Shown here in pieces: positions 111-19,004 of a DNA stretch of 19,004 nt; the first letter of the stretch is position 1; every line of letters starts with the position of its first letter. Made by a program: the position numbers and the translations under genes. The notes under the pieces are model-generated. The model had not been told where the DNA came from. It worked only from the letters and a program-made list of their open reading frames with translations, and made no database searches. This DNA comes from a bacterium (GTDB lineage Bacteria > Arandabacterota > Arandabacteria > Arandabacterales > JALGWA01): contig JASFEA010000057.1 of the NCBI GenBank assembly GCA_050125095.1, positions 1 through 19,004 on the forward strand. Direction: 5' to 3'.

Positions 111-125
111 CGGGAAATCCCTATG

Positions 126-3098: not shown

Positions 3099-3146
3099 AC
3101 CGGCAAAGTCTATATCGGATAAGCGTTTAACTTGAGAGGGGCTGAG

Positions 3147-4778
3147 GTGGCCGGACAGGAGCACGACAAGGGTGCATCATCTCCCCAGAACGGGTCGGGC
3201 CTGCCCCATAAGGCCATCCGCGAAGAGCTTCGCCGGGTCCTCTCGCATCCGGAGTTTCTCGCATCCCCTAAACGCCGGGATTTCCTGAAATATGTCGTCG
3301 AGGAGACCCTCGCGGGCCGGGCGGACCGGATCAAGGGGTATTCGATCGCCATGGCGGTCTTCGGCCGGGGCAAGGATTTCGATGCCGGGCTCGATCCGAT
3401 CGTCCGCATCGAGGCGGGTAAGCTGAGGCGCGAGCTCGAAAGGTATTACCTTGTCGCCGGGGGTGAAGATCCTGTACGCATCGACATACGGAAGGGGCGG
3501 TACGTGCCGCTTTTCATCGAGCAGCCCGGACCTGCGACCGGCGCCCCCGCCGAGTCCCTGTCGGGGCTATCCGGGATCGGCGCCAAGCCGTCCGTCGCCG
3601 TCATGCCCCTGGAGAACCTGACCGGCGATACCGGGCAGGACTACTTCGTGGACGGGCTGGTCTCCGAGCTGACCGTCGAGCTCGGCAGGTACCAGAACAT
3701 CATCGCAATTTCCGGCGGGAGAGCCGGTCCGGCGCCTGATGAGCCCGGGAATGCGAAGGAGACCGGATCCCAGCTGGGCGCGAGGTTTCTCCTTGGAGGC
3801 ACGCTGCGCAGAGACTCGGAGAGGGCGAAGGTCGCTCTTCACCTGACCGACACGGCGACGGGAAGGCAGGTCTGGAGCGAGGCCTACGCATACAAGCTCA
3901 ACCCGGCCGAAGTCATTTCAACCCAGGAATCGATCGCGAGGGAAGTCGTCGCAACCATCGCGGGAGAAGCGGGGATCATATCACAGCGGCTATCGCGCGA
4001 AGTCCGGAAAAAGAAGTCCTGCGACCTCACGACCTACGAGGCAGTACTCCGCTACCAGTACTACATGCGAGTGATGACGCCGGAATCATACCGGAGCGCG
4101 CTCGCAGCGCTGCGGGCCGCAGTCGAGCGCGAACCCGACTATGGGCCCGCCTGTTCAGCCCTCGCAAACATGCACTGCCACGCCTACATCTGGGACATAC
4201 CGGAGTTCGATGAGCCGCTGGAGAAGGCGGGCGAATACGCCAGGAACGGAGCCCTTATGGACCCTGCTAACCAGCTGACACGAACCGTCATGGCCTACGT
4301 CCATCTCTTGCGAGGCGAACTCGAGTCGGCACTGAGCGAGGCGGACGTGGCCCTTCGGCTCAATCCAAACTCCCCGTACTTTACCGGAACGATAGGATAC
4401 GTTGTCATGATGGCGGGCGATTTCGATCATGGCCGAAGACTCGTCGAAAACGCCATCGCTCTCAATCCCTGTCATCCAAGATGGTTCCACCACGCGCTCT
4501 GGCTGGACGATTACCGGCAGGAGCGCTACGAATCGTCTTATCGAGCCGCGGTGACCGCCGGACCGAGTCTTGGTTTCTGGCATCCGGTGGTGTGTGCCGC
4601 TCCGCTTGGAAAGCTGCAGCGCAGGCCGCAGGCCCGGGCCTACATCGCGGAGCTCCGCCGGCTCAAACCCGATTTCGAACAACGGTCCAGAGAGCTCATA
4701 GCCCGCGTCATAAAGATCGAGGGCTTCACCGAGCAGCTGATCGACGGGCTGAGGAAAGCGGGGCTGGAAGCGCTCTGA
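3147..4778 (+). CDS. Putative one-component regulator: N-terminal winged-helix-like domain, TolB-like (adenylate-cyclase-associated) domain and TPR repeats. GTG 3147 preferred; TTG 3132 possible
   Basis: N-terminal block LRRVLSHPEFLASPKRRDFLKYVVEETLAGRADRIKGYSIAMAVFGR..FD..LDPIVRIEAGKLRRELERYY. Central SVAVMPLENLTGDTGQDYFVDGL..LGARFLLGGTLRR..QVWSE. TPR-like A..LDP, ALRLNPN and AIALNP. Ends GLRKAGL. Purine-rich GAGAGGGG 5 nt before the GTG. No cyclase catalytic domain is visible. Confidence 0.85.
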   Translation: MAGQEHDKGASSPQNGSGLPHKAIREELRRVLSHPEFLASPKRRDFLKYVVEETLAGRADRIKGYSIAMAVFGRGKDFDAGLDPIVRIEAGKLRRELERYYLVAGGEDPVRIDIRKGRYVPLFIEQPGPATGAPAESLSGLSGIGAKPSVAVMPLENLTGDTGQDYFVDGLVSELTVELGRYQNIIAISGGRAGPAPDEPGNAKETGSQLGARFLLGGTLRRDSERAKVALHLTDTATGRQVWSEAYAYKLNPAEVISTQESIAREVVATIAGEAGIISQRLSREVRKKKSCDLTTYEAVLRYQYYMRVMTPESYRSALAALRAAVEREPDYGPACSALANMHCHAYIWDIPEFDEPLEKAGEYARNGALMDPANQLTRTVMAYVHLLRGELESALSEADVALRLNPNSPYFTGTIGYVVMMAGDFDHGRRLVENAIALNPCHPRWFHHALWLDDYRQERYESSYRAAVTAGPSLGFWHPVVCAAPLGKLQRRPQARAYIAELRRLKPDFEQRSRELIARVIKIEGFTEQLIDGLRKAGLEAL

Positions 4779-4921
4779 CTCGCCGGACGATCGCATTGCA
4801 CCCCCAGATCCGATAGACCGGGGAAGCGTCCTCCCATCTGAAAAAGCCGGAAACGCAGAACCCTCGAAACCCGTTCAGTTGTTCTATAAGGGAGAGTTCC
4901 GGAGAGGGCTGCGAACGAAAG

Positions 4922-4996
4922 TGGCTCCCCGGGCAGGACTTGAACCTGCAACCCTCCGGTTAACAGCCGGATGCTCTGCCATTGAGCTACCGAGGA
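4922..4996 (-). tRNA. trnN: tRNA-Asn (anticodon GUU), CCA encoded
   Basis: Reverse complement TCCTCGG-TAGCTCAATGGCAGAGCA-TCCGG-CT-GTT-AA-CCGGA-GGGTT-GCAGG-TTCAAGT-CCTGC-CCGGGGA-G-CCA. Acceptor, D, anticodon and T arms all pair. Confidence 0.98.
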
Positions 4997-5067
4997 GCAA
5001 GCGTGTATATGAACCGCACTGCCAAGCGGCTATGTTGTGAATATGACTATCGGCAAGTTTCTCAGGT

Positions 5068-5096
5068 ATGATAGTGCAAAGCCCCTGTGGTGTCAA
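5068..5096 (-). promoter_or_regulatory. Near-consensus sigma70 promoter driving tRNA-Asn
   Basis: Minus strand TTGACA (5096-5091), 17-nt spacer, TATCAT (5073-5068). Implies a leader of about 65 nt before the tRNA. Confidence 0.85.
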
Positions 5097-5140
5097 GGGC
5101 CAGCGCCTGTCCGGCAATATACCCGCAGTACCTGGCGACC

Positions 5141-5833
5141 CTAGTCCCGGGCCAGCGCGTATTTCCAGATCATAGCCGCAATCAGCGCCCCGATTATGGG
5201 GGCGACGAAGAAGAGCCAGACCTGGGAGACGGCCGCTCCGCCTGCGAAGACAGCCGGTCCGAGGCTCCGCGCCGGGTTCACCGAGGTTCCCGTAACCGGT
5301 ATCCCGACGAGGTGAATGAAGGCGAGCGCGAATCCGATTGCCACGCCGGCGAAGCCTTTTGGCGCCTTCTCGCTGGTAGAGCCGAACACGACGAGCAGGA
5401 ATATGGCCGTGAGTACGATTTCGGCGATGAAACAGGCGCCCAGGGCGTAGCCCGCCGGAGAGTGGATGCCGTAGCCATTCTGCCCCAGGCCGCCCACGGC
5501 CAGCGAGTAGCCCGCCCGGCCCGACGCGATGGCCAGGAGGATGCCGGCCGCAATGATGCCGCCGATGCACTGCATGATGATATAGAGCACGGCATCTCTG
5601 GCCTTCATTTTCCCCGCTGCCAGCATGCCGATGCTGATGGCGGGATTAATGTGACAGCCCGAAATGGGGCCCACCGCGTAAACCATGGCGAGCACCGAGA
5701 GTCCGAAGGCCAACGAGATCCCGGCGAAACCTATGTACTCCCCTGCTATGACGGCGCTTCCGCAGCCGATGAAGACGAGGGTCAGGGTCCCCAACATCTC
5801 AGCGACGCATCTCTTCCCGATACTTGCTTCCAT
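5141..5833 (-). CDS. aqpZ: Aquaporin Z (MIP family water channel), 230 aa
   Basis: AEMLGT, SGCHINPA and IHLVGIPVTGTSVNPARS: two NPA boxes with AqpZ-type ar/R residues F/H/T/R. Also the AqpZ loop GxNGYGxHSPxGY and six hydrophobic segments. AAAGGAGG RBS upstream of ATG 5833. Confidence 0.93.
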   Translation of the reverse strand: MEASIGKRCVAEMLGTLTLVFIGCGSAVIAGEYIGFAGISLAFGLSVLAMVYAVGPISGCHINPAISIGMLAAGKMKARDAVLYIIMQCIGGIIAAGILLAIASGRAGYSLAVGGLGQNGYGIHSPAGYALGACFIAEIVLTAIFLLVVFGSTSEKAPKGFAGVAIGFALAFIHLVGIPVTGTSVNPARSLGPAVFAGGAAVSQVWLFFVAPIIGALIAAMIWKYALARD

Positions 5834-6026
5834 GCCTTCCGCCTCCTTTCGCGCCGGCCCCGCCGAGGGGCGGCGCCGGGCCAATCGTAGGAGAGGGAGG
5901 CTGGCGTGTAAAGCAGGGAATTGAAACAAAGCGCACCGATGAATCGTATTCCAGAGTGGAGGGCGAAATAGCACGCCCTACTGTGCCGCGGTTTCTCCGA
6001 TACCCCCCTGTAAGAGGAGATGCTTC

Positions 6027-7532
6027 ATGAGGACTCTGACGCTGGCTATGCTCGTACTGCTCCTGAGCGCTCAGGCAGCCGCTGCCTATGCCATTGAGGC
6101 TGATCCACTTGAAGAGGTTTTCAGTTTTCTTGAGGACAACAACCTTTTCAACGGCGTAGCGCTTGTGGCTAATGGAGGAGAGGTGGTGGGTGAGCGGACG
6201 ATCGGGTACGCAAACTTCGAATGGGGGATACCCAATACGCTGGATACGAGATTCAGGATCGGCTCCATATCCAAGCAGTTCACGGCCGTACTCGCGCTTA
6301 TGCTTGTCGAAGAGGGCATGCTCTCTCTATCCGATCCCGTGGGCAAGTACATCCCCGAGATAGGCCGGCCATGGGCAGGTAGCGTGACCATCCATCATAT
6401 GCTGTGCCAGACTTCGGGAATACCCAATTACACCCTGCTTGAGGGGTATCTCGACAATATAGACAAGAAGCGCTTCACCAGGGACGAGTTCCTTGATCTC
6501 CTGGTGGCGGATCCTCTCATGGACTCGCTTCATTTCGAGCCCGGAAGTGACTTCGACTACAGCAACACGAATTACTTCTTAACGGGCACTGTGATCGAGA
6601 GAATAGCGGGCAGGCCGTTTGAAGAGGTGCTCCAGGAAAAAATACTGGGCGCTCTCAAGATGAATGATACCGGAGCCTTCGACGATCTGAGGCTGGTTCG
6701 GCACCGCGCCTACGGATATGAGAAGGCTCCGGACGACACATATGAACCCACCATGCACTCGTCGGCATCCCCCAAGAGCGTTCCATCGGGCGGACTCTAT
6801 TCCACGGCGGCGGATCTCCTGAAGTGGCACCGCGCGCTGCAGGAGAACATGCTCCTGGATGAGGATATGATGGCCGAGTTCCTTAAGGCCCATCACAAGT
6901 TCTCAGAGACCGAAGGCTATGCCTATGCCAACTACTGGACCAGGTATGCGTTGGACGAGGCGGAGTCCCTGGATGTATACGAGCATGGCGGCAGCTCCTT
7001 CGGCACAACCGGCATGTTCTATCGCGTGCCTGAAGCCGACATATGCGTCATTCTGCTGGCCAATGGCGGCATAGGGCGCGAGATGTTCCTCTCGTCGATA
7101 GCATACGCCATCATAGACATACTTCAGGGCAAGCAGCCGACTCTGCCGCGCTGCGACCTCCTGGGTACTATCGGGTACACTGCGATGGCCAGGACTCCGG
7201 ACGACGTGCGGGAGCATTACGCCTTCCTTAAGGCAAATCGGCGGGATGCCTATGAGTTCGGTCCCGAACAGCTCTCAATGGTGGGGCAGGTCATGCTCAT
7301 GCTATTCGAAGACCGCGAGACGGCTGAGCTCGTGTTCAAGATGAATACAGAAGAATTCCCGGAAGAGGCCTCGGTGTGGGTGGATCTGGGCACGCTGAAC
7401 CTCAACTACGGGGATCCTGCTCAAGCGCTGGAGTATTTCGAGAAGGCTCAGGCCCTGGAGCCGGAAGATGAGGCTATAGCCGGCCTGTTAGAGAGAGCCG
7501 AAGAGGAACTGAGAGGGGGGACGAGCCATTAG
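6027..7532 (+). CDS. Secreted serine hydrolase, beta-lactamase class C / D-aminopeptidase (S12)-like fold, with C-terminal TPR, 501 aa
   Basis: Signal peptide; FRIGSISK (SxxK), FDYSNTNY (YxN), HGG and SGGLYST; C-terminal TPR-like LG..N..G..A.A..YFEKA.ALEP; AGGAG RBS. Confidence 0.9.
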   Translation: MRTLTLAMLVLLLSAQAAAAYAIEADPLEEVFSFLEDNNLFNGVALVANGGEVVGERTIGYANFEWGIPNTLDTRFRIGSISKQFTAVLALMLVEEGMLSLSDPVGKYIPEIGRPWAGSVTIHHMLCQTSGIPNYTLLEGYLDNIDKKRFTRDEFLDLLVADPLMDSLHFEPGSDFDYSNTNYFLTGTVIERIAGRPFEEVLQEKILGALKMNDTGAFDDLRLVRHRAYGYEKAPDDTYEPTMHSSASPKSVPSGGLYSTAADLLKWHRALQENMLLDEDMMAEFLKAHHKFSETEGYAYANYWTRYALDEAESLDVYEHGGSSFGTTGMFYRVPEADICVILLANGGIGREMFLSSIAYAIIDILQGKQPTLPRCDLLGTIGYTAMARTPDDVREHYAFLKANRRDAYEFGPEQLSMVGQVMLMLFEDRETAELVFKMNTEEFPEEASVWVDLGTLNLNYGDPAQALEYFEKAQALEPEDEAIAGLLERAEEELRGGTSH

Positions 7533-7876
7533 CTTCGCTTAGTTTCCTCTCTGGTTGTGAAGCCCGCCCCCCGCGCTGTGCTGAGACGATATTCACATTT
7601 ATCTCCCATCCGGACGTTGACTTATGTATGCCACACGGGGCTGGAGCTCGGGATTCGTAAGAAGCCTCTGGCAGGGCCTTAACTCGGGTTGCACCATAAG
7701 ATAATAAACGGTGCCGGAATGCGCAATTCCCATTTGGGGTCAGGTCTTGAAATGCACAATGATCCGGCCCCCACGGCTTGACCCTGGAAGCGTTTTGGCA
7801 TATGTGTTTAGGAACGGGGCATACGGAGAGCATGAGAAAGAGGAACATCAAGCATCTACATCAAGGAGCATGATGA

Positions 7877-8458
7877 ATGGAAAAGACCAGCACGACATAC
7901 TTCGACAGGCCCGGCCCCCAGAACACGGCGGGCGTCATAGAGGCAGTCAAGAAGAGAGCCGGGGAGCTCGGCATCCAGCACATCGTCGTGGCTTCCACCA
8001 GGGGTACCACCGCCCTTGAGTTCGCCGAAGGCCTTGAGGGCATGGACCGCATTCTGGTCTGCGTTGGCGAGCATTCGGGCTTCACCGGGGGAGACGAGCA
8101 GCTCATGCCGGATGAGGTGAGACAGGAGCTCGAAGACAAAGGCGTGAAGGTTCTCATCTGTTCGCATGCCCTGAGCGGGGTCGGCCGTTCCATAAGCAGC
8201 AAACTCGGGGGCATAACTGGGACGGAGATCATAGCCCATACGTTGAGGCGCTTCGGAACCCAGGGCGTCAAGGTGGCGGTTGAAATCGCCGTCATGGCCG
8301 CCGACGCGGGCCTCATTCCCACGGATCGGGAGGTCATCGCCGTGGGCGGCACGCGAGGCGGCTGCGACACGGCCATAGTCCTCAAGGCCGCCCATATGAA
8401 CAACTTCTTCGACCTGGAGATAAGAGAGATAATAGCCAAGCCGCGGCAGTGGGACTGA
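7877..8458 (+). CDS. Pyruvate-kinase C-terminal-like alpha/beta domain protein (COG1751 / MTH1675-like), 193 aa
   Basis: [71 protein letters not shown] and I.EII.KP, all characteristic of this family. AAGGAG upstream. Confidence 0.88.
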
Positions 8459-8507
8459 CGTCAGGCAATTGGGGGCGAATGGCAGCAGGCAATGGAGGTT
8501 TCATAAA

Positions 8508-8888
8508 ATGGCTCCTTTCGATGCGGGAATTACGTTCTGCTACACGCGTGACCTGAAGAAGACGGCGGAGTTCTATGAGGGGGTCATGGGGCTGCCGCTT
8601 GTTCTGGACCAGGGAGGTTGCAGGATCTACCGCGTGTCCGCAGGCGCCTATTTCGGGTTCTGCGAGCGAGAGAGGGCCGGGTCGGGGAAGGGCCTGATTT
8701 TGACATTCGTTACGGACGATGTGGACAAGTGGTATGAGAAGCTCTCGGGACAGGGCGTCGAGTTCGAGAAACAGCCGACCCTCAATACGGAGTACAATAT
8801 CTATCACTGTTTCCTGAGAGACCCCAATGGGTACCTTCTTGAGATACAGAGGTTTGAGGATCCCCGCTGGCCCGGCGGGAATGAGTGA
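8508..8888 (+). CDS. VOC / glyoxalase-bleomycin-resistance family protein, 126 aa
   Basis: DLKKTAEFYEGVMGL, LTFVTDDVDKWYEKL..GV and FLRDPNGYLLEIQ. GGAGG at 8494-8498 supports ATG 8508 over TTG 8469. Confidence 0.9.
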   Translation: MAPFDAGITFCYTRDLKKTAEFYEGVMGLPLVLDQGGCRIYRVSAGAYFGFCERERAGSGKGLILTFVTDDVDKWYEKLSGQGVEFEKQPTLNTEYNIYHCFLRDPNGYLLEIQRFEDPRWPGGNE

Positions 8889-9702
8889 ACCCCAACTGGA
8901 GCATATGATGAATGGTCAGAATAGAATCAGCCGTAACGACGTTACGGCCGCGATCGCCAGGGCGCTGGAGCCTCTTGACTATGTGTACGCCATGTGGGAG
9001 GGAGGCGCCGCCGCCTTCGACCGGGTGGACGAGTGGTCCGACATCGATATCTGCGTGAGCGCCGAGGATGACAGGATAGAAGAGCCGTTTGCCGTCGTTG
9101 AGGAGGCCATCGAATCTATGGCTCCGATCGAGCTCAAGTACGAGGTGACGGGTCCGAAGCTGGGAGAGTACGTCCAGGCGTTCTACAGGCTCGAAGGTGG
9201 CGGTCCATATATGCTTGTCGACTTCGCGGTCTTCAAGCACAGCGCCAAGGACAAGCTCCTGGAGCCCGAGCTCCACGGCGCGGCCAAGTGGCATTTCAAT
9301 AAGAAGGGCGCCGTGACTGTCCCCAGCCTTGACAGGGAGGCGTTCAGGGAGAAGGTGAGTGCGTCGCTTGAGAGTCTCCCCAAGCGCGTGGACATGTTCG
9401 CCGCCTTCATACCCAAGGAGATCAAGCGCGGCAACCTGGTGGCGGCCGTGGACTTCTACCAGCGCTTTCTGCTGGGCGCGCTCGCCCAGGCCCTGCGCCT
9501 TAAATACAATCCCGCGCGCTATGACTTCGGCGTCCGCTATGTCTACCATGACCTACCGCCTGAGGTCGTTAAGCGATTCGAGAGCCTGTATGTGATCCGT
9601 GACGCTGACGACCTCGCCGCGAAATACGAAAAGGCCCGCCGGTGGTTCGAGGAGACTGCAGGGAGCATCAGTCCGGATGAGGTGGCCGAGCACATGAAAT
9701 GA
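8881..9702 (+). CDS. Pol-beta-superfamily nucleotidyltransferase-domain protein (antibiotic NTase-like architecture); start 8881, or 8905/8908
   Basis: AMWEGGAAAFDRVDEWSDIDI (hG[S/A]..D.WSDhD), a third acidic residue in LVDF, and a helical C-terminal domain. Overlaps the VOC stop. Confidence 0.8.
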   Translation: MSEPQLEHMMNGQNRISRNDVTAAIARALEPLDYVYAMWEGGAAAFDRVDEWSDIDICVSAEDDRIEEPFAVVEEAIESMAPIELKYEVTGPKLGEYVQAFYRLEGGGPYMLVDFAVFKHSAKDKLLEPELHGAAKWHFNKKGAVTVPSLDREAFREKVSASLESLPKRVDMFAAFIPKEIKRGNLVAAVDFYQRFLLGALAQALRLKYNPARYDFGVRYVYHDLPPEVVKRFESLYVIRDADDLAAKYEKARRWFEETAGSISPDEVAEHMK

Positions 9703-9721
9703 GCGCGGTCGCCGGCTCTTC

Positions 9722-12124
9722 CTATAGTGGAAGGTCACGGATGTCGTCGTCCGACAGGCCGATTCGCTTTAGTATTTCCAGATACCGCGGGTCGGAACGG
9801 ATCTTATCCAGGCCGGGCGTTACTCTTATGAACACAAGTTCATTTTCTCTGGCCTCCATCGCCCTTTCCAGGTATTCAAGCGCAAGGTCCTGCTCGCCGA
9901 GCATTGCTGAGTACTCGGCCGCGAGCATATTGGGATTGCCGGATGTGGTGGTCTCCTCCAGAACGTGCTCCCTCATGGCGCGAATGGCACCTTCATAGCC
10001 TGATTCCCTGAACCCCTCCTCGAGGACTTCGGCCGCGCGGGGGTCGCCTACTGCCTCAAGACCGGCCCTCAGCTCTTCAATGGCCCGTTCGTAATCGCCG
10101 CGAACCGCGTGCATCCATCCCAGGATGACGTGGGCCGGCCCGAAACCGGGATCCATCTCGAGCACTCTCTCCAGCTCTTCCTCGGCCACGTCGTAGTCGC
10201 CGGTGTAAAAGTATATGACGCCGACGGCTGCGTTGATTATGATCGACAGGGGATCCAGTTCACGCGCGCGCTCCGCTTCACGAATGGCCTCATCCGTCCT
10301 CCCGATGTTCATGAGTATGAGACCGTACCATTGGTGGGCAGTTGCGTAGTTCGGATTCAGTTCAAGAGCCTTATGGAAATGCTTCAGGGCCGCTCTGACG
10401 TCCCACTCGTATCCGAATGAAATCCACCCCAGCGAGACATAGGCCTCTGCGAGGCCCTCATCCAGCTCCAGCGCCTTGAGGGCCGCAGCCCTTCCCTTGG
10501 GAAGGCGCTCGGAACTCGGCATGGACTCGAGCATAGTATATGAGTCTGCTAGGCCGGCGTAAGCAGGGGCATAGGTCGGGTCCTTTTCTATGGCCTGTTT
10601 GAAACACTCGATACCCTTCGTTATTCCCTCATCGGTCCTCTTGTTCCAGTAGAAACGCCCCTTGAGATAGAGATTGTAGGCTTCCAGGTTCTGCGTGGCG
10701 CGATCGGCCGGCTGTCTCCGCTGTTCGCCAGCGAACCTGAGTTTGAGCTTCTCCGCGATTGAGGTGGATATCTCGTCCTGTATCTCAAAAACGTCTTCCA
10801 TTTCCCTGTCGTAGCGCTCGGACCAGATGTGATACCCGTCCGATACGTTCACCAACTGTACCGTCACCCTGAGGCGATTGCCTGCCTTCCGCACGCTGCC
10901 TTCGAGCACAGTGCCGACGTTGAGTTTCTCTCCGATTTCGCGAATGTCCAGGTCTCTGCCCTTGAATTGGAAAGAGGATGTGAGGGCCGCGACCCTCAGG
11001 CCATCAACCTTGACCAGCGCGTTTATGATCTCTTCAGCCATGCCGTCGCAGAAGTACTCCTGGTCCTTCTCGGGGCTCATGTCCCTGAAAGGCATGACCG
11101 CCAGCGATGCCGTGCTGCTGGTTTCCTCCTTATCGGGCGGCGCCCTGCGGATTGCGGGTGCCTGCTGCCCGCCTAGAGCGGATTCGAACGCGGAAAGGAG
11201 CTCTGCCGCAGAGGAATAGCGCCGGGCCGGGGACTTCTCAAGGCACTTCAGCACTATGCGTTCGAGCATAGCCGGCAGCCCCGGACTGAACCGCGAGGGC
11301 GGAACCGGGTCCTCCGACATGTGCTTGCTGAGCATGTCGCGGGCGGATTCGGCCGAGAAGGGCTTCCGCCCCGCCAGCATTTCGTAGATGATGCAGCCGA
11401 ACGAGTAAATGTCCGATCTCTCGTCCGCAGGGGTGCCGCCGGCCTGCTCGGGGGATATGTATTCCGGTGTGCCGACCACCAGTCCCCGCGCCGTCGAATC
11501 CTCCGCTCCTACGGCCTTGGCTATGCCGAAGTCCATCACGTAGGCCCTGCCGATCTGGTCGAGCATGATGTTCTGTGGCTTGAGATCCCTGTGAATAACA
11601 CCCTGCCTGTGGGCTGCAACAAGCGCGCCCGCTATCTGTCTGGCTATTGCAACGGCGCGGTCGGGCATAAGCCGGCCGGCCGTCAACACGAGCTCCTTGA
11701 GGCTTGTGCCGTCTATGAACTTCATGGAAATGTATTTGATGCCTTCGGCCTCGCCGAGGTCGTGGATGCGGATGACGTTCTCGTGGCTGACTTCGCTTGC
11801 CAGCAGGAGCTCCTGTTTGAAGCGCTCCAGAATGCCGGGATCGGATGTCAGCCCCGGCTTGATCATCTTGAGAGCCACCACGCGGCCAAGCTCTTCATCG
11901 ACTGCCTTGTAGACCACGCCCATGCCGCCGCGCCCGATCTCCTCGATGATCTGATAGCGGGACCCGAACTTCTGGCCGGGCGTGAAGGTGAAACCGCTCT
12001 CGGGCCCCCTCTCAGGGGGACGAGCGGGAAGTGGAGTTGTCGGCGCCGCTTCCAGCGCCCTTCCGCAGTTGCTGCAGAAGCGGCTGTCGCTCGAATTGCT
12101 GTGGCTGCAATGTGGGCATTCCAT
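9722..12124 (-). CDS. Hanks-type Ser/Thr protein kinase with N-terminal zinc ribbon, TolB-like domain and TPR repeats (apparently cytoplasmic), 800 aa
   Basis: CPHC..FCSNCG; GRGGMGVVY, VALK, HRDLKPQN, DFG, GTPEYISPE and SDIYSFG; SLAVMPF.DMS..DQEYFCDG; multiple TPRs (A.ELDP); GAGGTG RBS; no TM helix seen. Confidence 0.95.
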   Translation of the reverse strand: MECPHCSHSNSSDSRFCSNCGRALEAAPTTPLPARPPERGPESGFTFTPGQKFGSRYQIIEEIGRGGMGVVYKAVDEELGRVVALKMIKPGLTSDPGILERFKQELLLASEVSHENVIRIHDLGEAEGIKYISMKFIDGTSLKELVLTAGRLMPDRAVAIARQIAGALVAAHRQGVIHRDLKPQNIMLDQIGRAYVMDFGIAKAVGAEDSTARGLVVGTPEYISPEQAGGTPADERSDIYSFGCIIYEMLAGRKPFSAESARDMLSKHMSEDPVPPSRFSPGLPAMLERIVLKCLEKSPARRYSSAAELLSAFESALGGQQAPAIRRAPPDKEETSSTASLAVMPFRDMSPEKDQEYFCDGMAEEIINALVKVDGLRVAALTSSFQFKGRDLDIREIGEKLNVGTVLEGSVRKAGNRLRVTVQLVNVSDGYHIWSERYDREMEDVFEIQDEISTSIAEKLKLRFAGEQRRQPADRATQNLEAYNLYLKGRFYWNKRTDEGITKGIECFKQAIEKDPTYAPAYAGLADSYTMLESMPSSERLPKGRAAALKALELDEGLAEAYVSLGWISFGYEWDVRAALKHFHKALELNPNYATAHQWYGLILMNIGRTDEAIREAERARELDPLSIIINAAVGVIYFYTGDYDVAEEELERVLEMDPGFGPAHVILGWMHAVRGDYERAIEELRAGLEAVGDPRAAEVLEEGFRESGYEGAIRAMREHVLEETTTSGNPNMLAAEYSAMLGEQDLALEYLERAMEARENELVFIRVTPGLDKIRSDPRYLEILKRIGLSDDDIRDLPL

Positions 12125-12199
12125 TATGTCGCACCTCGACCGGAAACCGGAGGATTATAGTAACACAGGCGCGGGCAAGGCGCTACCCCCGGAGCCATA

Positions 12200-12217
12200 A
12201 TTAACAACTTATTAACA
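12200..12217. promoter_or_regulatory. 11-bp-period direct repeat in the divergent kinase/S46 intergenic region (OmpR/PhoB-type box)
   Basis: ATTAACA at 12200-12206 and 12211-12217, forming an AT-rich patch in a GC-rich background. Confidence 0.5.
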
Positions 12218-12354
12218 CAAACAGGGTGCTTCACCGGGCGACGCCCTTTATGCTACTATTCTAGAGATCGCAATTGGCTGGCCGCAAGGTCATCTGTATA
12301 AGGCGAAAAGGTAGACTATCGCCGACCACCTAACTTCTGCGCGGGGAGGCTGGC

Positions 12355-14553
12355 ATGCTTGGCGCGTCTTTTTCCCGTATTCCGCTCACAGGGCGATCCT
12401 CAGGATCCCTTCTCTGCATTATAACGGCCCTCCTGTTGCTGGCTCATTGCCCGCCGACGAGAGCGGCCGAAGGCATGTGGCCGCCGTATGACATACCGGA
12501 TGAGGTCTTCCAGGATATGCGGGGAATGGGCCTCGAACTTACGATGGATGAAATCTGGAATGAAGACGGCACAGGCGTGGCGAATGCGGTGGTCAGCGTG
12601 GGGGCCACTGGTTCGTTCGTTTCCCCGGACGGGTTGATACTCACGAACCATCACGTGGCCTACGGGGCCGTCCAGCGAATCAGCACGTCCGAGATGAACT
12701 ATATCGAGCGAGGCTACCTGGCGCGGACCAGGGAGGAGGAGGTGCCCGCACACGGCTATCGTGCTTATATATTCCTCGGCTCCGAGGATGTGACCCAGCG
12801 TGTTCGCTCCGCCGTCGATGACTCTATGTCACCACTCGAGCGCTATAACGCAATCGAGCGCAGGACGAAGGAAATCGTCGCGGAAGCGGAGTCGGAAGAC
12901 GGCGTCTATTGCGAAGTCAATGCCTTCTATGGCGGGGCCCGGTATATGCTGGATACCTATGTCCGGCTCCGGGACATCCGGGTGGTTTACATCCCCGCAA
13001 GGGCCATCGGGGAGTACGGCGGTGACATCGACAACTGGATGTGGCCCCGGCATACGGCCGACTTCTCTTTTCTCCGGGCCTATGTGGGGCCCGACGGGAA
13101 GGCGGCCGACTACTCGGAGGCCAATGTCCCGTACAGGCCCGAGAGGTATCTTAAGATTTCGAAGGAGGGGGCCAAGGAGGGCGATTTCGGGCTCATAGTG
13201 GGCTTCCCGGGAAGGACGGCAAGATATCTGTCGTCGTATGGATTGGCCGAGTATGAATACTTTCTGTTGCCGCAGCAGATCAGGCTGTATGAGGAGATGA
13301 TACGGCTGCTCGAGATCGAGTCCCGGGCCTATGCCGAGGTTGCCGTGAGGGTCGCAAGCAGAATGAAGGGAATCAACAACTGGCTCAAGAAGAACCGCGG
13401 GCTTCTGGAGGGCTTCAAGCGCTTCGGCCTTACCGAGAACCAGCGGGCATTGGAAAGAGATATGCTCGAGAGGTCGTCCGGGGCGTTGAGAGTACAGAAG
13501 ATCCTCGAAGAATACAAAGAGCTCTATGCAGAATCCGAGCGATATGCCATGAAGGACCTCCTCATGTCGATGATGCTGGGAAGAGGCTCCCTGCTCAGCC
13601 AGGCCCTGACCATATACAAGTGGAGTCTCGAGAAAGAGAAGCCCGACATGGAGCGAGACCCCGACTATATGGAGCGGGAAGTGATTAACCTCGAGCGGAA
13701 GCTCCGAATCTTCCAGATGGGTTATAGCGAGGCAGGCGACAGGGTGCTGCTGGATATGCTCATCGGGGAGGCGATGGACCTGCCCGAGTGGCAGCGCATG
13801 AAGGTCTTCGACGATATCGTAGGCGGCCGGACGGGTGGCGAACTCGACACCTACCTGGGAGTGTTCCTGAATGAGCTCTATGCCAACACGACGCTCGACG
13901 ATACCGACGAGCGTCTGAGGATGTTCAACCTGACGCATGACGAACTCATGGCGGAGGGCGATTACTTCATCGCGCTGGCGGCCAAGTTCCACGTGGAGAA
14001 TGAAGAGCGGATTGAGCGGGAAAAGGTCTTCAAGGGGGCGCTGAACGCCCTGACCCCGGAGTGGATTGAGATCCTGGCCGCCCAGCGGCATGTTGCACCG
14101 TACTCGGACGCCAACGGCACCATGCGAATCAACTACGGGGCCGTAGGCGGGTACTCGCCGCGCGACGCCGTGCATTACGACGCTTTTACCACGCTCACGG
14201 GTATGGCGGAGAAATGCACGGGCGTCTTCCCCTTCGACTGCCCGGAGAGGCTATTGGAGCTGGCGCGGAGCGACTACCGCGGACGTTACCACAACCCGAA
14301 ACTCGGCGACGTACCTGTAAATATCCTCACGACCCATGACTCTACAAACGGGAATTCGGGGAGCCCGCTTGTAAACGGCAGAGGCGAGATCGTGGGGTGC
14401 TTGTTCGACGGCAACTATGAAGCCCTGACGGCTGACTTCGTTTTCCGGGATGACATCACGCGCTCGATCCACGTGGATACGCGCTACATACTCTTCGTAA
14501 CCGAAGAAGTGGACCACGCCGATAACGTGCTTCGCGAGCTCGGGCTCAAGTAG
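12355..14553 (+). CDS. S46 family dipeptidyl peptidase (DPP7/DAP BII-like), secreted, 732 aa
   Basis: Signal peptide followed by EGMW; SFVSPDGLILTNHH (His), DNWMWPRHTADF (Asp), GNSGSP (Ser), YSDANGTMR and FDGN; GGAGG RBS at 12345-12349. Confidence 0.95.
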   Translation: MLGASFSRIPLTGRSSGSLLCIITALLLLAHCPPTRAAEGMWPPYDIPDEVFQDMRGMGLELTMDEIWNEDGTGVANAVVSVGATGSFVSPDGLILTNHHVAYGAVQRISTSEMNYIERGYLARTREEEVPAHGYRAYIFLGSEDVTQRVRSAVDDSMSPLERYNAIERRTKEIVAEAESEDGVYCEVNAFYGGARYMLDTYVRLRDIRVVYIPARAIGEYGGDIDNWMWPRHTADFSFLRAYVGPDGKAADYSEANVPYRPERYLKISKEGAKEGDFGLIVGFPGRTARYLSSYGLAEYEYFLLPQQIRLYEEMIRLLEIESRAYAEVAVRVASRMKGINNWLKKNRGLLEGFKRFGLTENQRALERDMLERSSGALRVQKILEEYKELYAESERYAMKDLLMSMMLGRGSLLSQALTIYKWSLEKEKPDMERDPDYMEREVINLERKLRIFQMGYSEAGDRVLLDMLIGEAMDLPEWQRMKVFDDIVGGRTGGELDTYLGVFLNELYANTTLDDTDERLRMFNLTHDELMAEGDYFIALAAKFHVENEERIEREKVFKGALNALTPEWIEILAAQRHVAPYSDANGTMRINYGAVGGYSPRDAVHYDAFTTLTGMAEKCTGVFPFDCPERLLELARSDYRGRYHNPKLGDVPVNILTTHDSTNGNSGSPLVNGRGEIVGCLFDGNYEALTADFVFRDDITRSIHVDTRYILFVTEEVDHADNVLRELGLK

Positions 14554-14577
14554 AAGACTGAAGAGGGCACCATATAG

Positions 14578-14617
14578 ATCCCGGCGCAGGTTACGTTATG
14601 ATGCTATGCGCCGGGAT
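14578..14617. terminator. Perfect 11-bp inverted repeat between convergent genes
   Basis: ATCCCGGCGCA (14578-14588), 18-nt loop, TGCGCCGGGAT (14607-14617). Confidence 0.55.
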
Positions 14618-14660
14618 TCGGCCGGCGGCTCGCCTTTCGAATTCGATTCAGGAATCTTGC

Positions 14661-15641
14661 CTAGCCGTAGAGTTTGCCGGCCGCATGCCTCTCCTTAAGA
14701 TGCTTGATCATGTCCTCGGTCATGGCCGCGAGGTCCCACTTGTGCTCCCAGCCCCATTCCTCGCGCGCGGCAGAGTCATCTATCGAGTTGGGCCACGAAT
14801 CGGCGATCTTCTGGCGATAGTCGGGCTCGTATGTGATCTCGAACTCAGGGATATGCTTCTTGATCTCAGCCGCAAGTTCGGCCGGACTGAAGCTCACCGC
14901 CGCGTGATTGAAGTTGGAATGGTGTTTGAGATTCGAGAAATCGGCCTCGGCAAGCTGTATGGTGCCTTCGATGCAGTCGGGCATGTACATCATGGGAAGC
15001 CTGGTGTCCGGGCCCAGGAAGCATGTGTATTTGCCCTTATCGATGGCTTCGTAGAATATCTCGACCGCGTAGTCGGTCGTCCCGCCGCCGGGCAGCGTCT
15101 TATGGGAGATGATGCCGGGGTAGCGCAGGCCGCGGATGTCGAGACCGAACTTGGCGACGTAGTAGTCGCAGAGAAGCTCGCCGCAGACCTTGGTGACGCC
15201 GTACATGGTCGTGGGCTGCAGCACCGTCTCCTGGGGCGTGTTCTCGAGCGGCACCCCGGGCCCCCAGACTGCGATGGAACTGGGTATGATGATGCGCGCC
15301 ATCTCGTGCTTGAGACCGAGCTCCAGAAGGTTGATGGTGCCGTTCATGTTGACGTCCCAGCAGAGCTGGGGATTCTTCTCGCCGGTCGCCGAGAGAATAG
15401 CGGCCATATGATATATGGTGTCGATGTTGTACTTCTTGACCATCTCCTCGACGGTCTCTATCTGGCTTACGTTGATGAAGTGGAAGGGACCTGAGTCCCG
15501 GAGCTCATCGGATGGCTCGGTCTTGCGGCCCGTTGCGATGACATTCTCCGCGCCGTATCGCCTGCGCAGCTCCATGGTGAGTTCGGAGCCTATCTGGCCC
15601 ACGGCCCCTGTTACCAAGATCTTCTTCATTTCCTTCGCCAA
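14661..15641 (-). CDS. tdh: SDR-type (GalE-like) L-threonine 3-dehydrogenase / NAD-dependent epimerase family, 326 aa (TTG start; ATG 15629 alternative)
   Basis: GAVGQIG (Rossmann), LSATGE, PSSIAV, YGVTK (YxxxK), LRYPG, PGGGTTDYAV, LPMMYMPD and RQ.IADSWP, typical of SDR threonine dehydrogenases. GGAGG at 15651-15655. Confidence 0.85.
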   Translation of the reverse strand: MAKEMKKILVTGAVGQIGSELTMELRRRYGAENVIATGRKTEPSDELRDSGPFHFINVSQIETVEEMVKKYNIDTIYHMAAILSATGEKNPQLCWDVNMNGTINLLELGLKHEMARIIIPSSIAVWGPGVPLENTPQETVLQPTTMYGVTKVCGELLCDYYVAKFGLDIRGLRYPGIISHKTLPGGGTTDYAVEIFYEAIDKGKYTCFLGPDTRLPMMYMPDCIEGTIQLAEADFSNLKHHSNFNHAAVSFSPAELAAEIKKHIPEFEITYEPDYRQKIADSWPNSIDDSAAREEWGWEHKWDLAAMTEDMIKHLKERHAAGKLYG

Positions 15642-15740
15642 GGTACACTACCTCCGTTCTGTTTTCTCTTGCCCCGGGTTTGATATAAGACACTTCTTTA
15701 TACAGGCAAAATACCAGCAATCGGGCGGCGGGACAACATC

Positions 15741-15791
15741 AAAGTAGAAAGCCGGGCCAGCGTGTGCGCCGCGGTCCCCCGGGCCCCGGCT
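15741..15791 (-). terminator. Probable intrinsic terminator after the two-component operon
   Basis: Minus strand AGCCGGG...CCCGGCT with an inner CGGCG-caca-CGCTG stem, followed by TTCTACTTT; 11 nt after the regulator stop. Confidence 0.45.
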
Positions 15792-15802
15792 GACCGGAAA
15801 CT

Positions 15803-17158
15803 TCAGGATCCGGAGATCCTGTCGAGTTCTTCAACGCTTATGCCGAGTTCGCGCGCGGCCAGGTCCTTCTGATTGGAGAAGTGCTCCAGCGTTCTCAGCA
15901 CATAGTCCCTGACGACGACGTCGAGCTTCCTGGGCACGAAGGTCTCCGCGATCCCGGCCTTCTCGCCCTCGACCATCTGGCGAATGGACGGCGGCAGCGA
16001 CTCCACTGTCAGCATGTCTGCTTCCTCGTTCGCCACCGCGCCGGCTATGATGGTGCGAAGCTCCATGACGTTGCTGGGGAAGTTGTAGCCCCTGAGATAG
16101 TCCAGAACCTCGGCCGCCACTCCCTTGAAGGTCCTCCCGGCCTTCTCGGACTCCTCTTCCAGGAGCTTCTCTACGAGAATCGGAAGGTCATCCATGCGGT
16201 CGCGCAGGGGCGGTATATATATCGAATTGATCATCAGGTGGTAGAGAACGTCCCGGGAGAATCTGTCCTGGTACTCAGGACTGGTGAGATCAACCGTGGA
16301 GGCGACTATCATGCGGACATCGGCCTTTCTTATATGCGTCGAGTTCTCCCTGTAGAATTCGCCGGTCTGCAGGAACCGCTTGAGCCTTACCTGCATTGAG
16401 CTGGAGAGGGCGTCAATGTGGTTCAGGAAGAGCGTGCCCTGGTTTGCTTCCTCGAGGATCCCCGGGCTCTCTTCGCGGGTGCCACCCCAGGTCCTGTCCT
16501 GGCCGAAGAAGAAGGCCGGGAAGGTGTCCGGATCCTGGCTGTCGGCCTCCGCGGCCACGAACGGCTTGTCGCTTCGCTTGCTCGCATTGTGGATTGCGCG
16601 CGCGAGGGCCTCCTTGCCGGTGCCGCTCTCGCCCCAGATGAATATGCTGAGGTCGCTTGCCGCTATCTTCTCCGCCTGGTGGAAGAGGCGTATCATCGCC
16701 TGGTCGCGCGTCGAGAAATGCTCGAATGCGTCCTCATGCTCGAGGTCCTTGCGCGTGAGCTTCTCCGGAAGCGTCTTGATGTTCCGGTGCAGGACGCGAT
16801 GCTCCATTGCGTTATTGAGGACCTCGAGGAGTTTCTCGTCATCCGTGGGCTTTATCAGATAGTCGAATGCCCCCAGCTTCATTGCTTTCACGGCCAGGTC
16901 GACGTCGCTTACGCCGGTCAGCACGACGACCGGAATGTCAAGGCCCCTGCTGTGCATCTCGTTCAATATGTCCATGCCGCTCACATTGGGCATGTCCATG
17001 TCTAGCAGTACTATGTCGAAAGCGTCGGCTTTCAGTAGTTGACTCACTTCCCGGGAGTCGTTGACCACAGTGGTCTCAAACAGGCCCGTCTGCATCAGGA
17101 AGACCATGAGGTAATTGGTAACGGCGGGGTCATCATCGACGATCAGGATCTTCTTCAT
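15803..17158 (-). CDS. NtrC/AtoC-like response regulator (REC-AAA+-Fis HTH) with degenerate sigma54-activation and ATPase motifs, 451 aa
   Basis: Receiver ILIVDDD / LLDMDMP / LTG / KP is intact, as is Walker A GESGTGKE. Also ARAIH, PFV and PPLRDR.DD. GAFTGA, Walker B, R-finger and sensor II are altered. ATGA overlap with the kinase stop. Confidence 0.92.
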   Translation of the reverse strand: MKKILIVDDDPAVTNYLMVFLMQTGLFETTVVNDSREVSQLLKADAFDIVLLDMDMPNVSGMDILNEMHSRGLDIPVVVLTGVSDVDLAVKAMKLGAFDYLIKPTDDEKLLEVLNNAMEHRVLHRNIKTLPEKLTRKDLEHEDAFEHFSTRDQAMIRLFHQAEKIAASDLSIFIWGESGTGKEALARAIHNASKRSDKPFVAAEADSQDPDTFPAFFFGQDRTWGGTREESPGILEEANQGTLFLNHIDALSSSMQVRLKRFLQTGEFYRENSTHIRKADVRMIVASTVDLTSPEYQDRFSRDVLYHLMINSIYIPPLRDRMDDLPILVEKLLEEESEKAGRTFKGVAAEVLDYLRGYNFPSNVMELRTIIAGAVANEEADMLTVESLPPSIRQMVEGEKAGIAETFVPRKLDVVVRDYVLRTLEHFSNQKDLAARELGISVEELDRISGS

Positions 17159-19002
17159 TCAGCGTCCTCCGATGCTGCACTGGCGCCCTTGGTGGCCGGT
17201 ATCTTTATGGTGAAGGTGGTCCCCTCGCCGAGCTCGCTCGCGACGGACATGTGGCCCCCGTGTTCCTCCACAATGCGGTAGGCGATGGCGAGACCGAGAC
17301 CTGTCCCGCCCTTCGCGCGCTTGGTGGTGAAGAAGGGATCGAATATCTGCTTCAAGGTCTTCTCGGTCATGCCCTGCCCGTCATCCTCTATGTCGACCAG
17401 GATATCCCCGTTTTCCTCGCGGGTCCTTACGGTTATGGCACCCTTAGTGTCGTCCGGCATCGCCTGGCCCGCGTTCACCAGCAGATTTATGAGGACCTGC
17501 TCTATCTTCTGGGAATTCCCTATGAAGGTCGGGAGATTATCGGCCAGCTCGAGGTTGATGTCGGCCCGTTTGTGAACCTCATTGTGCACCAGTCTTGTGC
17601 TCGCTTCTATGAGTGTGTTCATGTCGACGGTGTCCACGAGAAGCCCCTCGTCCTTGCGCGCGAATGTCCGGAGGCCCTCTACAATGGCCTTGATCCTCTC
17701 CGAGCCATGCGCCATGTCGTTGACCAGCATCATTATGTGCTCTCTGAAGAAGTCGTAGTTCAGGCGGGCGATCTTCAGGTCCTCATGCGACTTCTGATAC
17801 TCGTCGACGATGGGCAGCATGTCCTCCAGGGCCTGCTTCAATATCTTTATGTTGCCGCGGATGAACTGGTTGGGGTTGTTGATCTCGTGTCCGATCCCGC
17901 TTACCAGCTGTCCCAGGGAGGCGAGCTTGTCGGCCTGTTGAAGCTGCTGCTCGTATGTCTTTTCCAGCGTCACGTCCCTGTAAAACTCGAGTATGCCGTC
18001 GACTTCGTGTTCTTTGTTGTAGACCGGAAGGGCGTGCACCTCGAGGTACTTGTCCTCATGCTTCATGGAGATGGTGAGAGGGGTCTTGTCCACGAGGATC
18101 CTGGCGAGCCTGCAGTTCTCGCACGGCCTGTCGCGGTCGAAGAAGACCTCATAGCAGTGTTTGCCCGCTGCGTCGACCTCCCGGTTGGTCATTACAATCC
18201 GGCGCTGCTTGTCGATCAGCACCGCCTCGTCCGGAATGGCCTTGAACATGGTTTCAAGCCGACCCGTGGCCTCTTCCATGCTGCTTGAGACGCGGGCGAG
18301 ATAGGAGTCCACCACGCTCAGCTTCTGGCGCTGTTCGTCAAGCTCGTGCGTGCGCGCGGCGATTTCGTTTTCGAGTTCCACGAGGCGCCGGTTGAATTCG
18401 GCCTCCTCTTCCTGCTTCATGCTTAGCTTGTCCCGGAACTCCTTGCGGCCCAGCGCGAAACTGAGGGCGCGGGCGATCTCGTTGAGCATCTTCTGCTCTT
18501 CAGGCAGAATCTCGTGCCTGTCATCTGCGTAGCCGATCCGGATCTCGCCCTTTTCTCTATCCCCGACCACGAGGCGGGTGGATATGAAGTTGCTCGATGT
18601 CGGCTTATCACCGTATTCCACGCCCTCGTAAACCGAATAGATCATAACTTCCTCGGGAGCCAGCATGCCGGGCCCGAGGTATTTCGGGAGTTCCGAGAAG
18701 AAGGCGTTGATCGAAGGAGAGACCTCTATCCACTCCATCACGCTGTAGATGCAGGCCAGCTCCTTGACCCTCTCTTCCCTCTCGGTCTTGGTGTCGCTGG
18801 CGAGGACTTCGAGCTTCTGGCCGAAGAAGATGCATAATGTCCTGTCGTTCGCCGAAGTGCAGCCCACCTTCATGGGGATGGAGCGCGAAGAATCGCTGGC
18901 GGGAGAGAACACGGCGATGGCCCTGTTCCCGGCCCTGGCACGGGCCATGGCGGTCCTGAAGGTGCCGAGCGAGAAATCGGACGCGACCTCTTCAAGCCGC
19001 AT
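17155..19002 (-). CDS. NtrB-like PAS sensor histidine kinase, probably 5'-truncated by the window edge
   Basis: ERVKELACIY block, coiled coil, PAS with a C-x10-C-x2-C motif, H-box LASLGQLVSGIGHEINNP, N-box QVLINLLVNA, DDGQGM, IFDPFFTTK and GTGLGL. The frame is open to the window end. Confidence 0.93.
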   Translation of the reverse strand: MRLEEVASDFSLGTFRTAMARARAGNRAIAVFSPASDSSRSIPMKVGCTSANDRTLCIFFGQKLEVLASDTKTEREERVKELACIYSVMEWIEVSPSINAFFSELPKYLGPGMLAPEEVMIYSVYEGVEYGDKPTSSNFISTRLVVGDREKGEIRIGYADDRHEILPEEQKMLNEIARALSFALGRKEFRDKLSMKQEEEAEFNRRLVELENEIAARTHELDEQRQKLSVVDSYLARVSSSMEEATGRLETMFKAIPDEAVLIDKQRRIVMTNREVDAAGKHCYEVFFDRDRPCENCRLARILVDKTPLTISMKHEDKYLEVHALPVYNKEHEVDGILEFYRDVTLEKTYEQQLQQADKLASLGQLVSGIGHEINNPNQFIRGNIKILKQALEDMLPIVDEYQKSHEDLKIARLNYDFFREHIMMLVNDMAHGSERIKAIVEGLRTFARKDEGLLVDTVDMNTLIEASTRLVHNEVHKRADINLELADNLPTFIGNSQKIEQVLINLLVNAGQAMPDDTKGAITVRTREENGDILVDIEDDGQGMTEKTLKQIFDPFFTTKRAKGGTGLGLAIAYRIVEEHGGHMSVASELGEGTTFTIKIPATKGASAASEDAE

Positions 19003-19004
19003 GG

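Follow-up and report, generated by a model that had tools for sequence, protein, structure and literature searches.

A conserved subfamily of apparently dead enhancer-binding protein homologues encoded in Stn-type operons

Introduction

The stretch of DNA considered here, called the window below, comprises 19,004 nucleotides (nt) from a bacterium of the Arandabacterota (assembly GCA_050125095.1, contig JASFEA010000057.1, positions 1 to 19,004). Toward its end it carries, on the minus strand, a response regulator gene that overlaps the gene of a histidine kinase and closes an operon of the Stn type. Judged by sequence, the product is homologous to enhancer-binding proteins (EBPs) but fails their functional definition on four features, namely the GAFTGA motif, the residues for ATP hydrolysis, the basic helix-turn-helix (HTH) and a -24/-12 promoter before its own operon, and its dead motifs are those of a conserved subfamily under strong purifying selection, not of decay. 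The family is referred to below as dead, and EBPs with the usual motifs as canonical.

Architecture and motifs of the regulator

Motifs were placed by HMMER alignment to NtrC1 (4l4u, 1ny5) and LuxO (5ep0). Conservation in the family refers to an alignment of 121 proteins, i.e., the window's regulator and 120 homologues, and the canonical reference consists of 135 representatives. The gene and the relevant stretches of its product are as follows.

15803-17158, minus strand: response regulator gene, 451 amino acids (receiver, degenerate sigma-54-type AAA+ core, AAA lid and diverged Fis-type three-helix C-terminus)
16988-17008, minus strand: LLDMDMP with the phospho-acceptor Asp53, kept; Asp in 121/121
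within 16913-16924, minus strand: receiver Thr81, kept
within 16847-16858, minus strand: receiver Lys103, kept
16610-16633, minus strand: Walker A GESGTGKE, kept; GKE in 121/121 close family members
16544-16552, minus strand: switch Asn, VNC type replaced by AEA; Glu (E204) in 95% of the family, Asn in 82% of the 135 canonical representatives
16478-16519, minus strand: L1 loop, PAFFFGQDRTWGGT, with GAFTGA replaced by a loop one residue shorter that has a conserved Trp (alignment); RTWGGT at 16478-16495
16415-16429, minus strand: Walker B FLNHI, Asp to Asn and Glu to His; N246 in 95% of the family
16337-16354, minus strand: L2 loop region YRENST (residues 269-274), replacing the canonical RVGG type; R270, E271 and S273 conserved
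16292-16303, minus strand: sensor I region ASTV, canonically ATN (alignment)
16235-16261, minus strand: FSRDVLYHL, both arginines of FRxDLxYRL gone (S and H), with His at the arginine-finger position
16058-16081, minus strand: sensor II FPSNVMEL, Arg to Met; Gln (Q365) in 83% of the family
15806-15841, minus strand: C-terminal ISVEELDRISGS, acidic and short recognition helix of a diverged HTH (charge and predicted fold)

The gene is a single open frame of 451 codons, with neither stops nor frameshifts in its translation. Its receiver (PF00072, 96 bits) and lid (AAA_lid_14, 59 bits) are recognized by Pfam, and the AAA+ domain with its lid, the mark of EBP homology and fold, is present, although the sigma-54 interaction domain (PF00158) scores only about 128-131 bits against 185-250 bits in 15 canonical paralogues of the same genome, which also encodes rpoN. 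The AlphaFold2 model (pLDDT 87.9) keeps the three C-terminal helices, and its AAA+ core superposes on NtrC1, ZraR and LuxO at 1.8-2.4 Å (TM 0.90-0.92). The Pfam family HTH_8 is not matched in the window's regulator at E<=0.01.

Positions that are canonical in at least 80% of the reference and in less than 10% of the family can be found at the switch Asn, L1, L2, Walker B, sensor I, both arginines and sensor II; further positions with the same contrast fall outside those motifs. The L1 loop reads TWGGT, with W224 in 94% of the family, and each of the canonical G, T and A is retained by less than 10% of the 121 proteins. In L2, G272 of the canonical consensus is Asn in the window's regulator, and the arginine-finger position is His (H307) in 121/121. 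The residues on which hydrolysis and its coupling depend in EBPs (Walker B DE, switch Asn, arginine finger, sensor II Arg) thus appear as N-H, E, H and M. Regarding the receiver, D9, D53 and K103 are invariant and T81 is present in at least 90% of a 105-row alignment (A2), and the elements expected of a two-component system, i.e., an acidic pocket with Asp, Thr and Lys beside a histidine kinase, are all there.

The C-terminal domain is a diverged Fis-type HTH minus its basic face. The net charge of its recognition helix is -3.06 in the family (n=121, range -9 to +2, counted over the helix and the tail to the C-terminus) and +3.10 in canonical proteins (n=119, range 0 to +7, counted over the first 14 residues). 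HTH_8 is weakly detectable (E<=0.01) in 46/105 rows of A2, at most 16 of those 46 being canonical.

An earlier note, drawn from the letters of this DNA, had described the gene as a pseudo-EBP. Its coordinates for RTWGGT, FLNHI, FSRDVLYHL, FPSNVMEL and GESGTGKE are exact, the AEA, ASTV, acidic C-terminus and acceptor motifs that it mentioned could be located at the positions given above, and its statements that no frameshift is present and that an ATGA couples the gene to the upstream kinase are correct. The check for rpoN that it proposed came out positive.

Family, phylogeny and selection

A protein search listed 120 homologues at 61-94% identity, in which the replacements common to the whole family are kept. 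Public records name them NtrC-family or sigma-54-dependent regulators (Eisenbacteria, Krumholzibacteria, Latescibacterota and unclassified metagenome-assembled genomes), and regulon predictions built on the label of a sigma-54-dependent regulator would be wrong. In trees built with FastTree, the dead clade is monophyletic, with 21/21 tips for AAA+ and lid and 26/26 for the full length, support of 1.0 in each case and a long stem. It is of old origin, with members in several candidate phyla. In more distant representatives (P0122-P0128, 43-56% identity), the His is kept, and Walker B and sensor II are variable. Early-branching dead forms (L030, L031 and L146) keep the switch Asn and have S-N in Walker B, GKR or GKG in Walker A, and LYHLW or LYCLW.

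With regard to selection, ten orthologue pairs gave ratios of nonsynonymous to synonymous substitution rates (dN/dS) of 0.035-0.115 overall, the ratios being rough where dS exceeds 1, as many of the dS values do, and the two least saturated pairs gave 0.041 and 0.089. Divided by part, dN/dS is lowest in the AAA+ core (0.02-0.10), intermediate in the receiver (0.03-0.12) and highest in the C-terminus (0.07-0.32). Canonical cassette orthologues at similar divergence have an AAA+ core dN/dS of 0.045-0.116, so that the dead motor domain is as constrained as the live one. Truncated forms were not found among the listed relatives, except for fragments at contig ends. The proposal of the earlier note that the gene encodes a selected pseudo-ATPase and not a decaying one is thereby borne out: the substitutions are conserved family-wide and dN/dS is low, most of all in the AAA+ core.

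The operon

The regulator is the last gene of a cassette in which the order is REC-RAM regulator, NuoE-like, NuoF-like, GltD-NuoG fusion (StnC-like), PAS kinase and dead regulator. Two features at its 3' part lie in the window.

17155-19004, minus strand: cognate PAS histidine kinase, continuing at its 5' end past the window into contig C196
17155-17158, minus strand: ATGA overlap of kinase stop and regulator start, read in the sequence

The four genes upstream of the kinase encode a protein that joins a receiver to two RAM/ACT-like domains, a NuoE-like and a NuoF-like protein, and a fusion of GltD-like and NuoG-like parts of 1230-1260 amino acids. The best matches of this large subunit are 9bov_A (789 bits), 8oh5_C, which is StnC (750 bits), and NfnA (9n5u_A). 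A canonical paralogue upstream of the kinase, for which the earlier note had suggested looking, was not found there; that place is held by the StnABC-like operon and the REC-RAM regulator. The kinase frame does not start at 19002. Since the contig ends overlap and the cassette runs onto C196, the kinase begins beyond the end of the window, which is a contig end.

In the window's genome, the ends of contigs C251 (locus L116), C196 (locus L115) and C57, the window's own contig, overlap by exactly 127 bases, which brings the whole cassette into a single row; the genes upstream of the kinase are on C251 and C196. In L117, from a genome of the same genus, the six genes are contiguous on one contig, as they are in other loci. 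Logan contigs from two runs extend beyond the C196 end by 395 and 540 nt. A scan of genome contigs returned 79 loci, most of them drawn in by the receiver pattern, and 9 of which are cassette relatives, including one (L032) that turned out to be canonical; the kinase, with HEINNPN as its H-box, adjoins the regulator in 9/9 loci of this first scan. Of 22 dead-form loci, a set that leaves aside two further ones at contig starts (G001 and G016), 20 extend far enough upstream to be informative, and in 17 of these 20 the gene immediately before the kinase is StnC.

Across the 18 genomes of the window's phylum, the regulator is present as a single copy in 14, and a StnC orthologue can be found in the same 14 and in G014 (73% complete). 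Neither regulator nor StnC was found in G004, G012 and G017. Four further genomes carrying the family (behind L026, L027, L029 and L031) all have a StnC orthologue. The distribution of rpoN, present in 16/18 phylum genomes and missing from two that are 89% and 57% complete, does not discriminate.

Several observations concern individual members of the cassette. The kinase of the window and 17 orthologues share an invariant Cys-x10-Cys-x2-Cys with nearby His residues in the PAS domain before the H-box, a set that could be a metal or iron-sulfur redox sensor site; the same Cys motif occurs in the canonical-cassette kinase of L032. The REC-RAM gene (L116:1620-2603, minus strand) and its orthologues (alignment A3) encode a receiver followed by two beta-alpha-beta-beta-alpha-beta (RAM/ACT-like) domains, with no DNA-binding domain. 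Its start codon is TTG or GTG in 9/10 dead-form cassettes checked (all but L030), with the first 25 residues identical. Foldseek with the REC-RAM model returned matches to receiver domains only, and a complex prediction of the regulator (A1) with REC-RAM (A3) scored 0.00 in a run without controls, which gives no verdict either way. In L029 (Candidatus Sabulitectum silens record, genome G042), kinase and regulator each align in two pieces, the part covering the regulator containing five stops, and internal stops also interrupt the StnC orthologue, which lies elsewhere in G042; either joint decay of the module or poor assembly would give this pattern.

Canonical counterparts and promoter type

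The same cassette can be found with a fully canonical regulator. In L032, from an Aminicenantia metagenome-assembled genome, the regulator shares 43% identity with that of the window, and a near-consensus -24/-12 element lies 75 nt before the first gene. An orthologue is present in 31/61 genomes around L032, and 20 of the 30 further orthologue places were examined: 17 hold the whole cassette, L140 holds kinase and regulator only, and two are too short to judge. In all 21 canonical-type regulators the L1 motif reads GAFTGA or GSFTGA, Walker B has DE and sensor I ATN, both arginines and the sensor II Arg are in place, and the recognition helix is basic. L144, which lacks the switch Asn only, lies outside the cassette clade in the tree. 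In L136 (G074), another canonical cassette, the matches to StnB and StnC are fragmented (several pieces, 59-77% identity), whereas kinase and regulator are whole.

Promoter type goes with the state of the regulator. In canonical cassettes that include the first gene, the sigma-54 pattern TGGCA[CT]-N5-[TA]TGC[TA] is present at -55 to -75 in 18/18, with varying spacers and against a background of one match per 6081 nt in canonical loci, and a TTGAC[AT]-N16-18-TAxxxT element in 0/18. Conversely, among the 12 dead-form cassettes that include the region upstream of the first gene, a -24/-12 element before the own operon was found in none and TTGACA-N17-TAxxxT in 11; the exception, L030, shows neither a clear sigma-54 nor a clear sigma70 promoter. 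An independent promoter scan agreed with the sigma70-type assignment in L117, matching 10/12 positions with 0.2 expected.

The full-length tree groups the dead family with the canonical cassette regulators and P0129, P0131 and P0132 (support 0.969), and from the node that they share, the path to the dead family has roughly double the length (1.29 vs 0.67). The most economical interpretation is that, in one lineage, a regulator that had activated its own operon through sigma-54 gave up this role, alongside a change of promoter type. The earlier note had named canonical close orthologues, combined with relaxed selection on this copy, as the pattern that would speak for decay. Close orthologues in fact keep the dead motifs; it is the distant relatives in the same cassette (43%, Aminicenantia type) that are canonical behind a sigma-54 promoter, and these point to the origin of the family. 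The existence of one operon in two states, one with a live activator and a -24/-12 element and the other with a dead activator and a sigma70-type promoter, makes both the order of events and the regulator's new role testable.

Further sequences around the cassettes were compared. An upstream palindrome, GTGTxAA-N5-TTAxCAC, occurs in 10/18 canonical and 0/10 dead-form cassettes, which is a hint only and a weak control, the pattern being derived from the canonical set and the G+C content differing (0.38 vs 0.56). The leader between the sigma70-type promoter and the first gene (L116:2601-2705, minus strand, and L117, L121, L123, L125, L025, L119 and L024) measures 58-102 nt, with a GGGG...CCCC hairpin in about 6/9 leaders and a motif of the type GTATCTTATGG in 8/9. 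In the genome this motif is confined to the operon, other matches being chance hits with one mismatch. Rfam gave no match in six cassette loci, and RNAalifold no supported consensus structure for nine leaders. A pattern scan of the coding strand after the regulator found no terminator, and the fold energy there is unremarkable (z 0.75).

Possible functions of the regulator

The explanation favoured here, to which we give a slight balance of probability, is that the regulator is a former sigma-54 activator of the Stn operon which now serves as a phosphorylation-gated, nucleotide-binding, non-hydrolysing protein-interaction module. The ancestor was most likely an ordinary sigma-54 activator switching the operon on from a -24/-12 promoter, as is seen today in Aminicenantia-type genomes. 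In the window's lineage, the operon has a sigma70-type promoter, and the residues for ATP hydrolysis, inter-subunit nucleotide sensing, sigma-54 contact and DNA recognition have been lost, with the intact receiver, the P-loop and the whole fold retained under strong purifying selection. Sequence comparison establishes the family's conservation and descent, its place in the operon and the agreement of promoter type with regulator state. The present protein is presumably still phosphorylated by its kinase, may bind nucleotide without hydrolysing it and may be oligomeric, and its remodelled pore loops (the Trp of L1 and the RENS of L2) and acidic C-terminal helix would contact a protein partner instead of sigma-54 and DNA. 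Candidate partners are the other products of the cassette, whose StnA/StnB/StnC-like subunits would form an electron-bifurcating NADH/NADPH/ferredoxin transhydrogenase, or the transcription machinery.

Several points weigh against this explanation. The phylogeny comes from a single program, FastTree, many of the dN/dS ratios are rough, as said above, and the cassette of the window's own genome was pieced together from three contigs through their 127-nt end overlaps. The Walker A Lys is lost in P0123, P0126 and P0128, so that nucleotide binding is not universal in the wider clade, and in 3/20 informative loci (L027, L029 and L148) the pair of kinase and regulator lies away from Stn. The promoters are predictions by consensus match, not from mapped transcript starts, and the agreement of their type with the state of the regulator involves two or few lineages, i.e., few independent events. 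The retained three-helix fold and the weak HTH_8 matches in the family would allow another mode of DNA binding, and contact with a partner is something that we infer.

A related but rather improbable role is that of a post-translational controller, in which a nucleotide-bound ring, formed on phosphorylation by the putatively redox-sensing PAS kinase, would act directly on the transhydrogenase or on REC-RAM through its pore loops and acidic tail. If true, this would be a two-component system without transcriptional output, built from an EBP, and a dated natural example of the dismantling of a sigma-54 circuit whose components found new use.

It is about equally doubtful that the regulator is a sigma70-dependent atypical DNA-binding protein of the VpsR, NtrX or HupR kind, which would activate or repress the operon from its sigma70-type promoter. 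Such regulators exist, VpsR and NtrX are among the structural matches, the dead-form operon has a promoter of the required type, and the C-terminal fold with its weak HTH_8 matches in part of the family is compatible with the idea. However, the recognition helix is acidic across the family and the C-terminus is the least constrained part of the protein, with dN/dS reaching the upper end of the range given above. In addition, a promoter with a consensus -35 hexamer and 17-nt spacing needs no activator, a conserved palindrome is not apparent around the dead-form promoter, and the conserved leader motif has no second copy in the genome.

A phosphate sink or kinase buffer is distinctly less probable. 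According to this hypothesis, the receiver would drain phosphoryl groups and tune signalling to REC-RAM, the remainder of the protein being baggage. The cassette does combine one kinase with two receiver proteins, the acceptor Asp, Thr and Lys are all retained, and the kinase stop overlaps the regulator start. Nevertheless, constraint on the AAA+ core equals or exceeds that on the receiver, and the new residues of the replaced loops (W224 and H307) are conserved in their turn. A sink would also tolerate loss or decay of the output domains, and no truncated form turned up among the listed relatives outside contig ends. The constraint on the AAA+ core together with the conserved new loop residues makes a sink insufficient and favours a protein-interaction module. 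The list of roles in the earlier note is narrowed accordingly: the acidic recognition helix found throughout the family speaks against a sigma70-type DNA-binding regulator, and the AAA+ core, as the most constrained part, against a mere phosphate sink.

Slightly less credible again is a sigma-54 trap or ring poison, i.e., an ATP-bound, non-hydrolysing protein that would engage sigma-54 holoenzyme or the rings of canonical EBPs and block transcription when phosphorylated. The genome offers the targets in rpoN and 15 canonical EBPs, and the L1 tip keeps an aromatic and a small residue (FT to WG in the window, W-S/G in relatives). There is also a precedent, in the available part of the source, in PspF E108Q, which is defective in hydrolysis and engages and remodels sigma-54 holoenzyme through ATP binding (PMC4132715). 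In contrast, the L1 loop of the regulator, shortened by one residue, is without its flanking Gly and Ala, and none of the elements that link nucleotide state with loop position (arginine finger, sensor II and switch Asn) is left. Inheritance, moreover, tracks the Stn cassette and not rpoN, which is also present in genomes where the regulator was not found.

Finally, a decaying pseudogene or recently inactivated paralogue, suggested by the absence of every catalytic signature, is very hard to believe in view of the intact frame, the same states in 120 homologues, the low dN/dS and the old clade spread over several candidate phyla.

The family links a two-component system to what is predicted to be an electron-bifurcating transhydrogenase in uncultured wetland and sediment bacteria.

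Remainder of the window

The gene downstream of the regulator belongs to the NAD-dependent epimerase/dehydratase family and also adjoins the regulator in L117. An open reading frame of 298 amino acids on the opposite strand matches no Pfam family and is probably an antisense artefact. The remaining genes listed appear ordinary and are not conserved beside the cassette.

14661-15641, minus strand: NAD-dependent epimerase/dehydratase family gene
14598-15494, plus strand: open reading frame of 298 amino acids opposite the epimerase gene
12355-14553, plus strand: S46 dipeptidyl peptidase
9722-12124, minus strand: Ser/Thr protein kinase with N-terminal zinc ribbon and tetratricopeptide (TPR) repeats
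221-2659, minus strand: sulfatase

Comparison with known systems

The encoded neighbours of the regulator correspond to the StnABC/NfnABC transhydrogenases of the Bfu family: the upstream large subunit matches them, and NuoE-like and NuoF-like genes precede it. StnC itself is described, in the part of the source available, as a 1172-amino-acid fusion of GltD and NuoG domains (PMC10482914). The available portions of the main texts of three papers on such enzymes, supplements aside, mention neither a histidine kinase nor a response regulator in the context of Stn or Nfn (PMC7483475, PMC10482914, PMC12018979).

The closest relatives by descent are the EBPs of the Aminicenantia-type cassettes. Like the dead regulator, they are encoded at the end of the operon, behind an orthologous kinase (sharing 46-55% identity with the kinase of L032 in the more distant cassettes), in the same six-gene order and within the same supported clade. 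They differ from it in having GAFTGA, DE, ATN, both arginines, the sensor II Arg, a basic helix and, in every cassette with its first gene, a -24/-12 promoter. PspF E108Q is a canonical activator with one engineered change, whereas in the regulator all gamma-phosphate-sensing residues are changed. The paper on PexR was considered as a parallel and set aside, as its available part describes a canonical activator (PMC12754779).

Regarding atypical EBPs, i.e., EBP homologues without a functional GAFTGA, the regulator shares their defining feature. NtrX from Brucella abortus resembles it in having a sigma-54-type AAA+ domain without a working GAFTGA; its structures (5m7n/o/p) are among the best full-length structural matches, and an NCBIfam match points the same way. 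NtrX is, however, encoded with ntrY and not in a transhydrogenase operon. HupR from Rhodobacter capsulatus controls a redox enzyme, a hydrogenase. The accessible part of one source describes NtrX as a DNA-binding repressor, and HupR, TyrR, PhhR, HsfA and the NtrC of Rhodobacter as atypical EBPs that act at sigma70 promoters (PMC6158489). All members of the latter group are DNA-binding transcription factors, unlike what the acidic helix of the dead family suggests. The NtrC of Caulobacter likewise acts at sigma70 promoters, and according to the portion of a preprint that covers it, still requires Walker A and Walker B residues.

VpsR from Vibrio cholerae is similar in its order of receiver, AAA+ and HTH domains, in its fold (structural match 7v2b) and in the loss of GAFTGA and Walker B. 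As far as the available text describes it, VpsR has no GAFTGA, carries N and D in place of the Walker B Asp and Glu and shows no detected ATPase activity, and it binds DNA just upstream of the -35 element and activates RNA polymerase containing sigma70 together with c-di-GMP (PMC6158489). The regulator differs in its acidic helix, in the additional replacement of arginine finger, sensor II and switch Asn, and in being encoded within a redox-enzyme cassette.

A description of the dead family was not found in the literature seen, supplements aside. In kind, the regulator appears closest to the atypical EBPs. With respect to DNA binding, its acidic helix has to be set against the retained fold and the weak HTH_8 matches in part of the family, and the one observation that bears on action at sigma70 promoters, the TTGACA-N17-TAxxxT element of its own operon, is circumstantial. 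All the atypical EBPs named above are described, in the parts of the sources available, as acting at promoters. The dead family, unlike them, appears to have lost the DNA-binding role too, and would thus widen the range of pseudo-EBPs.

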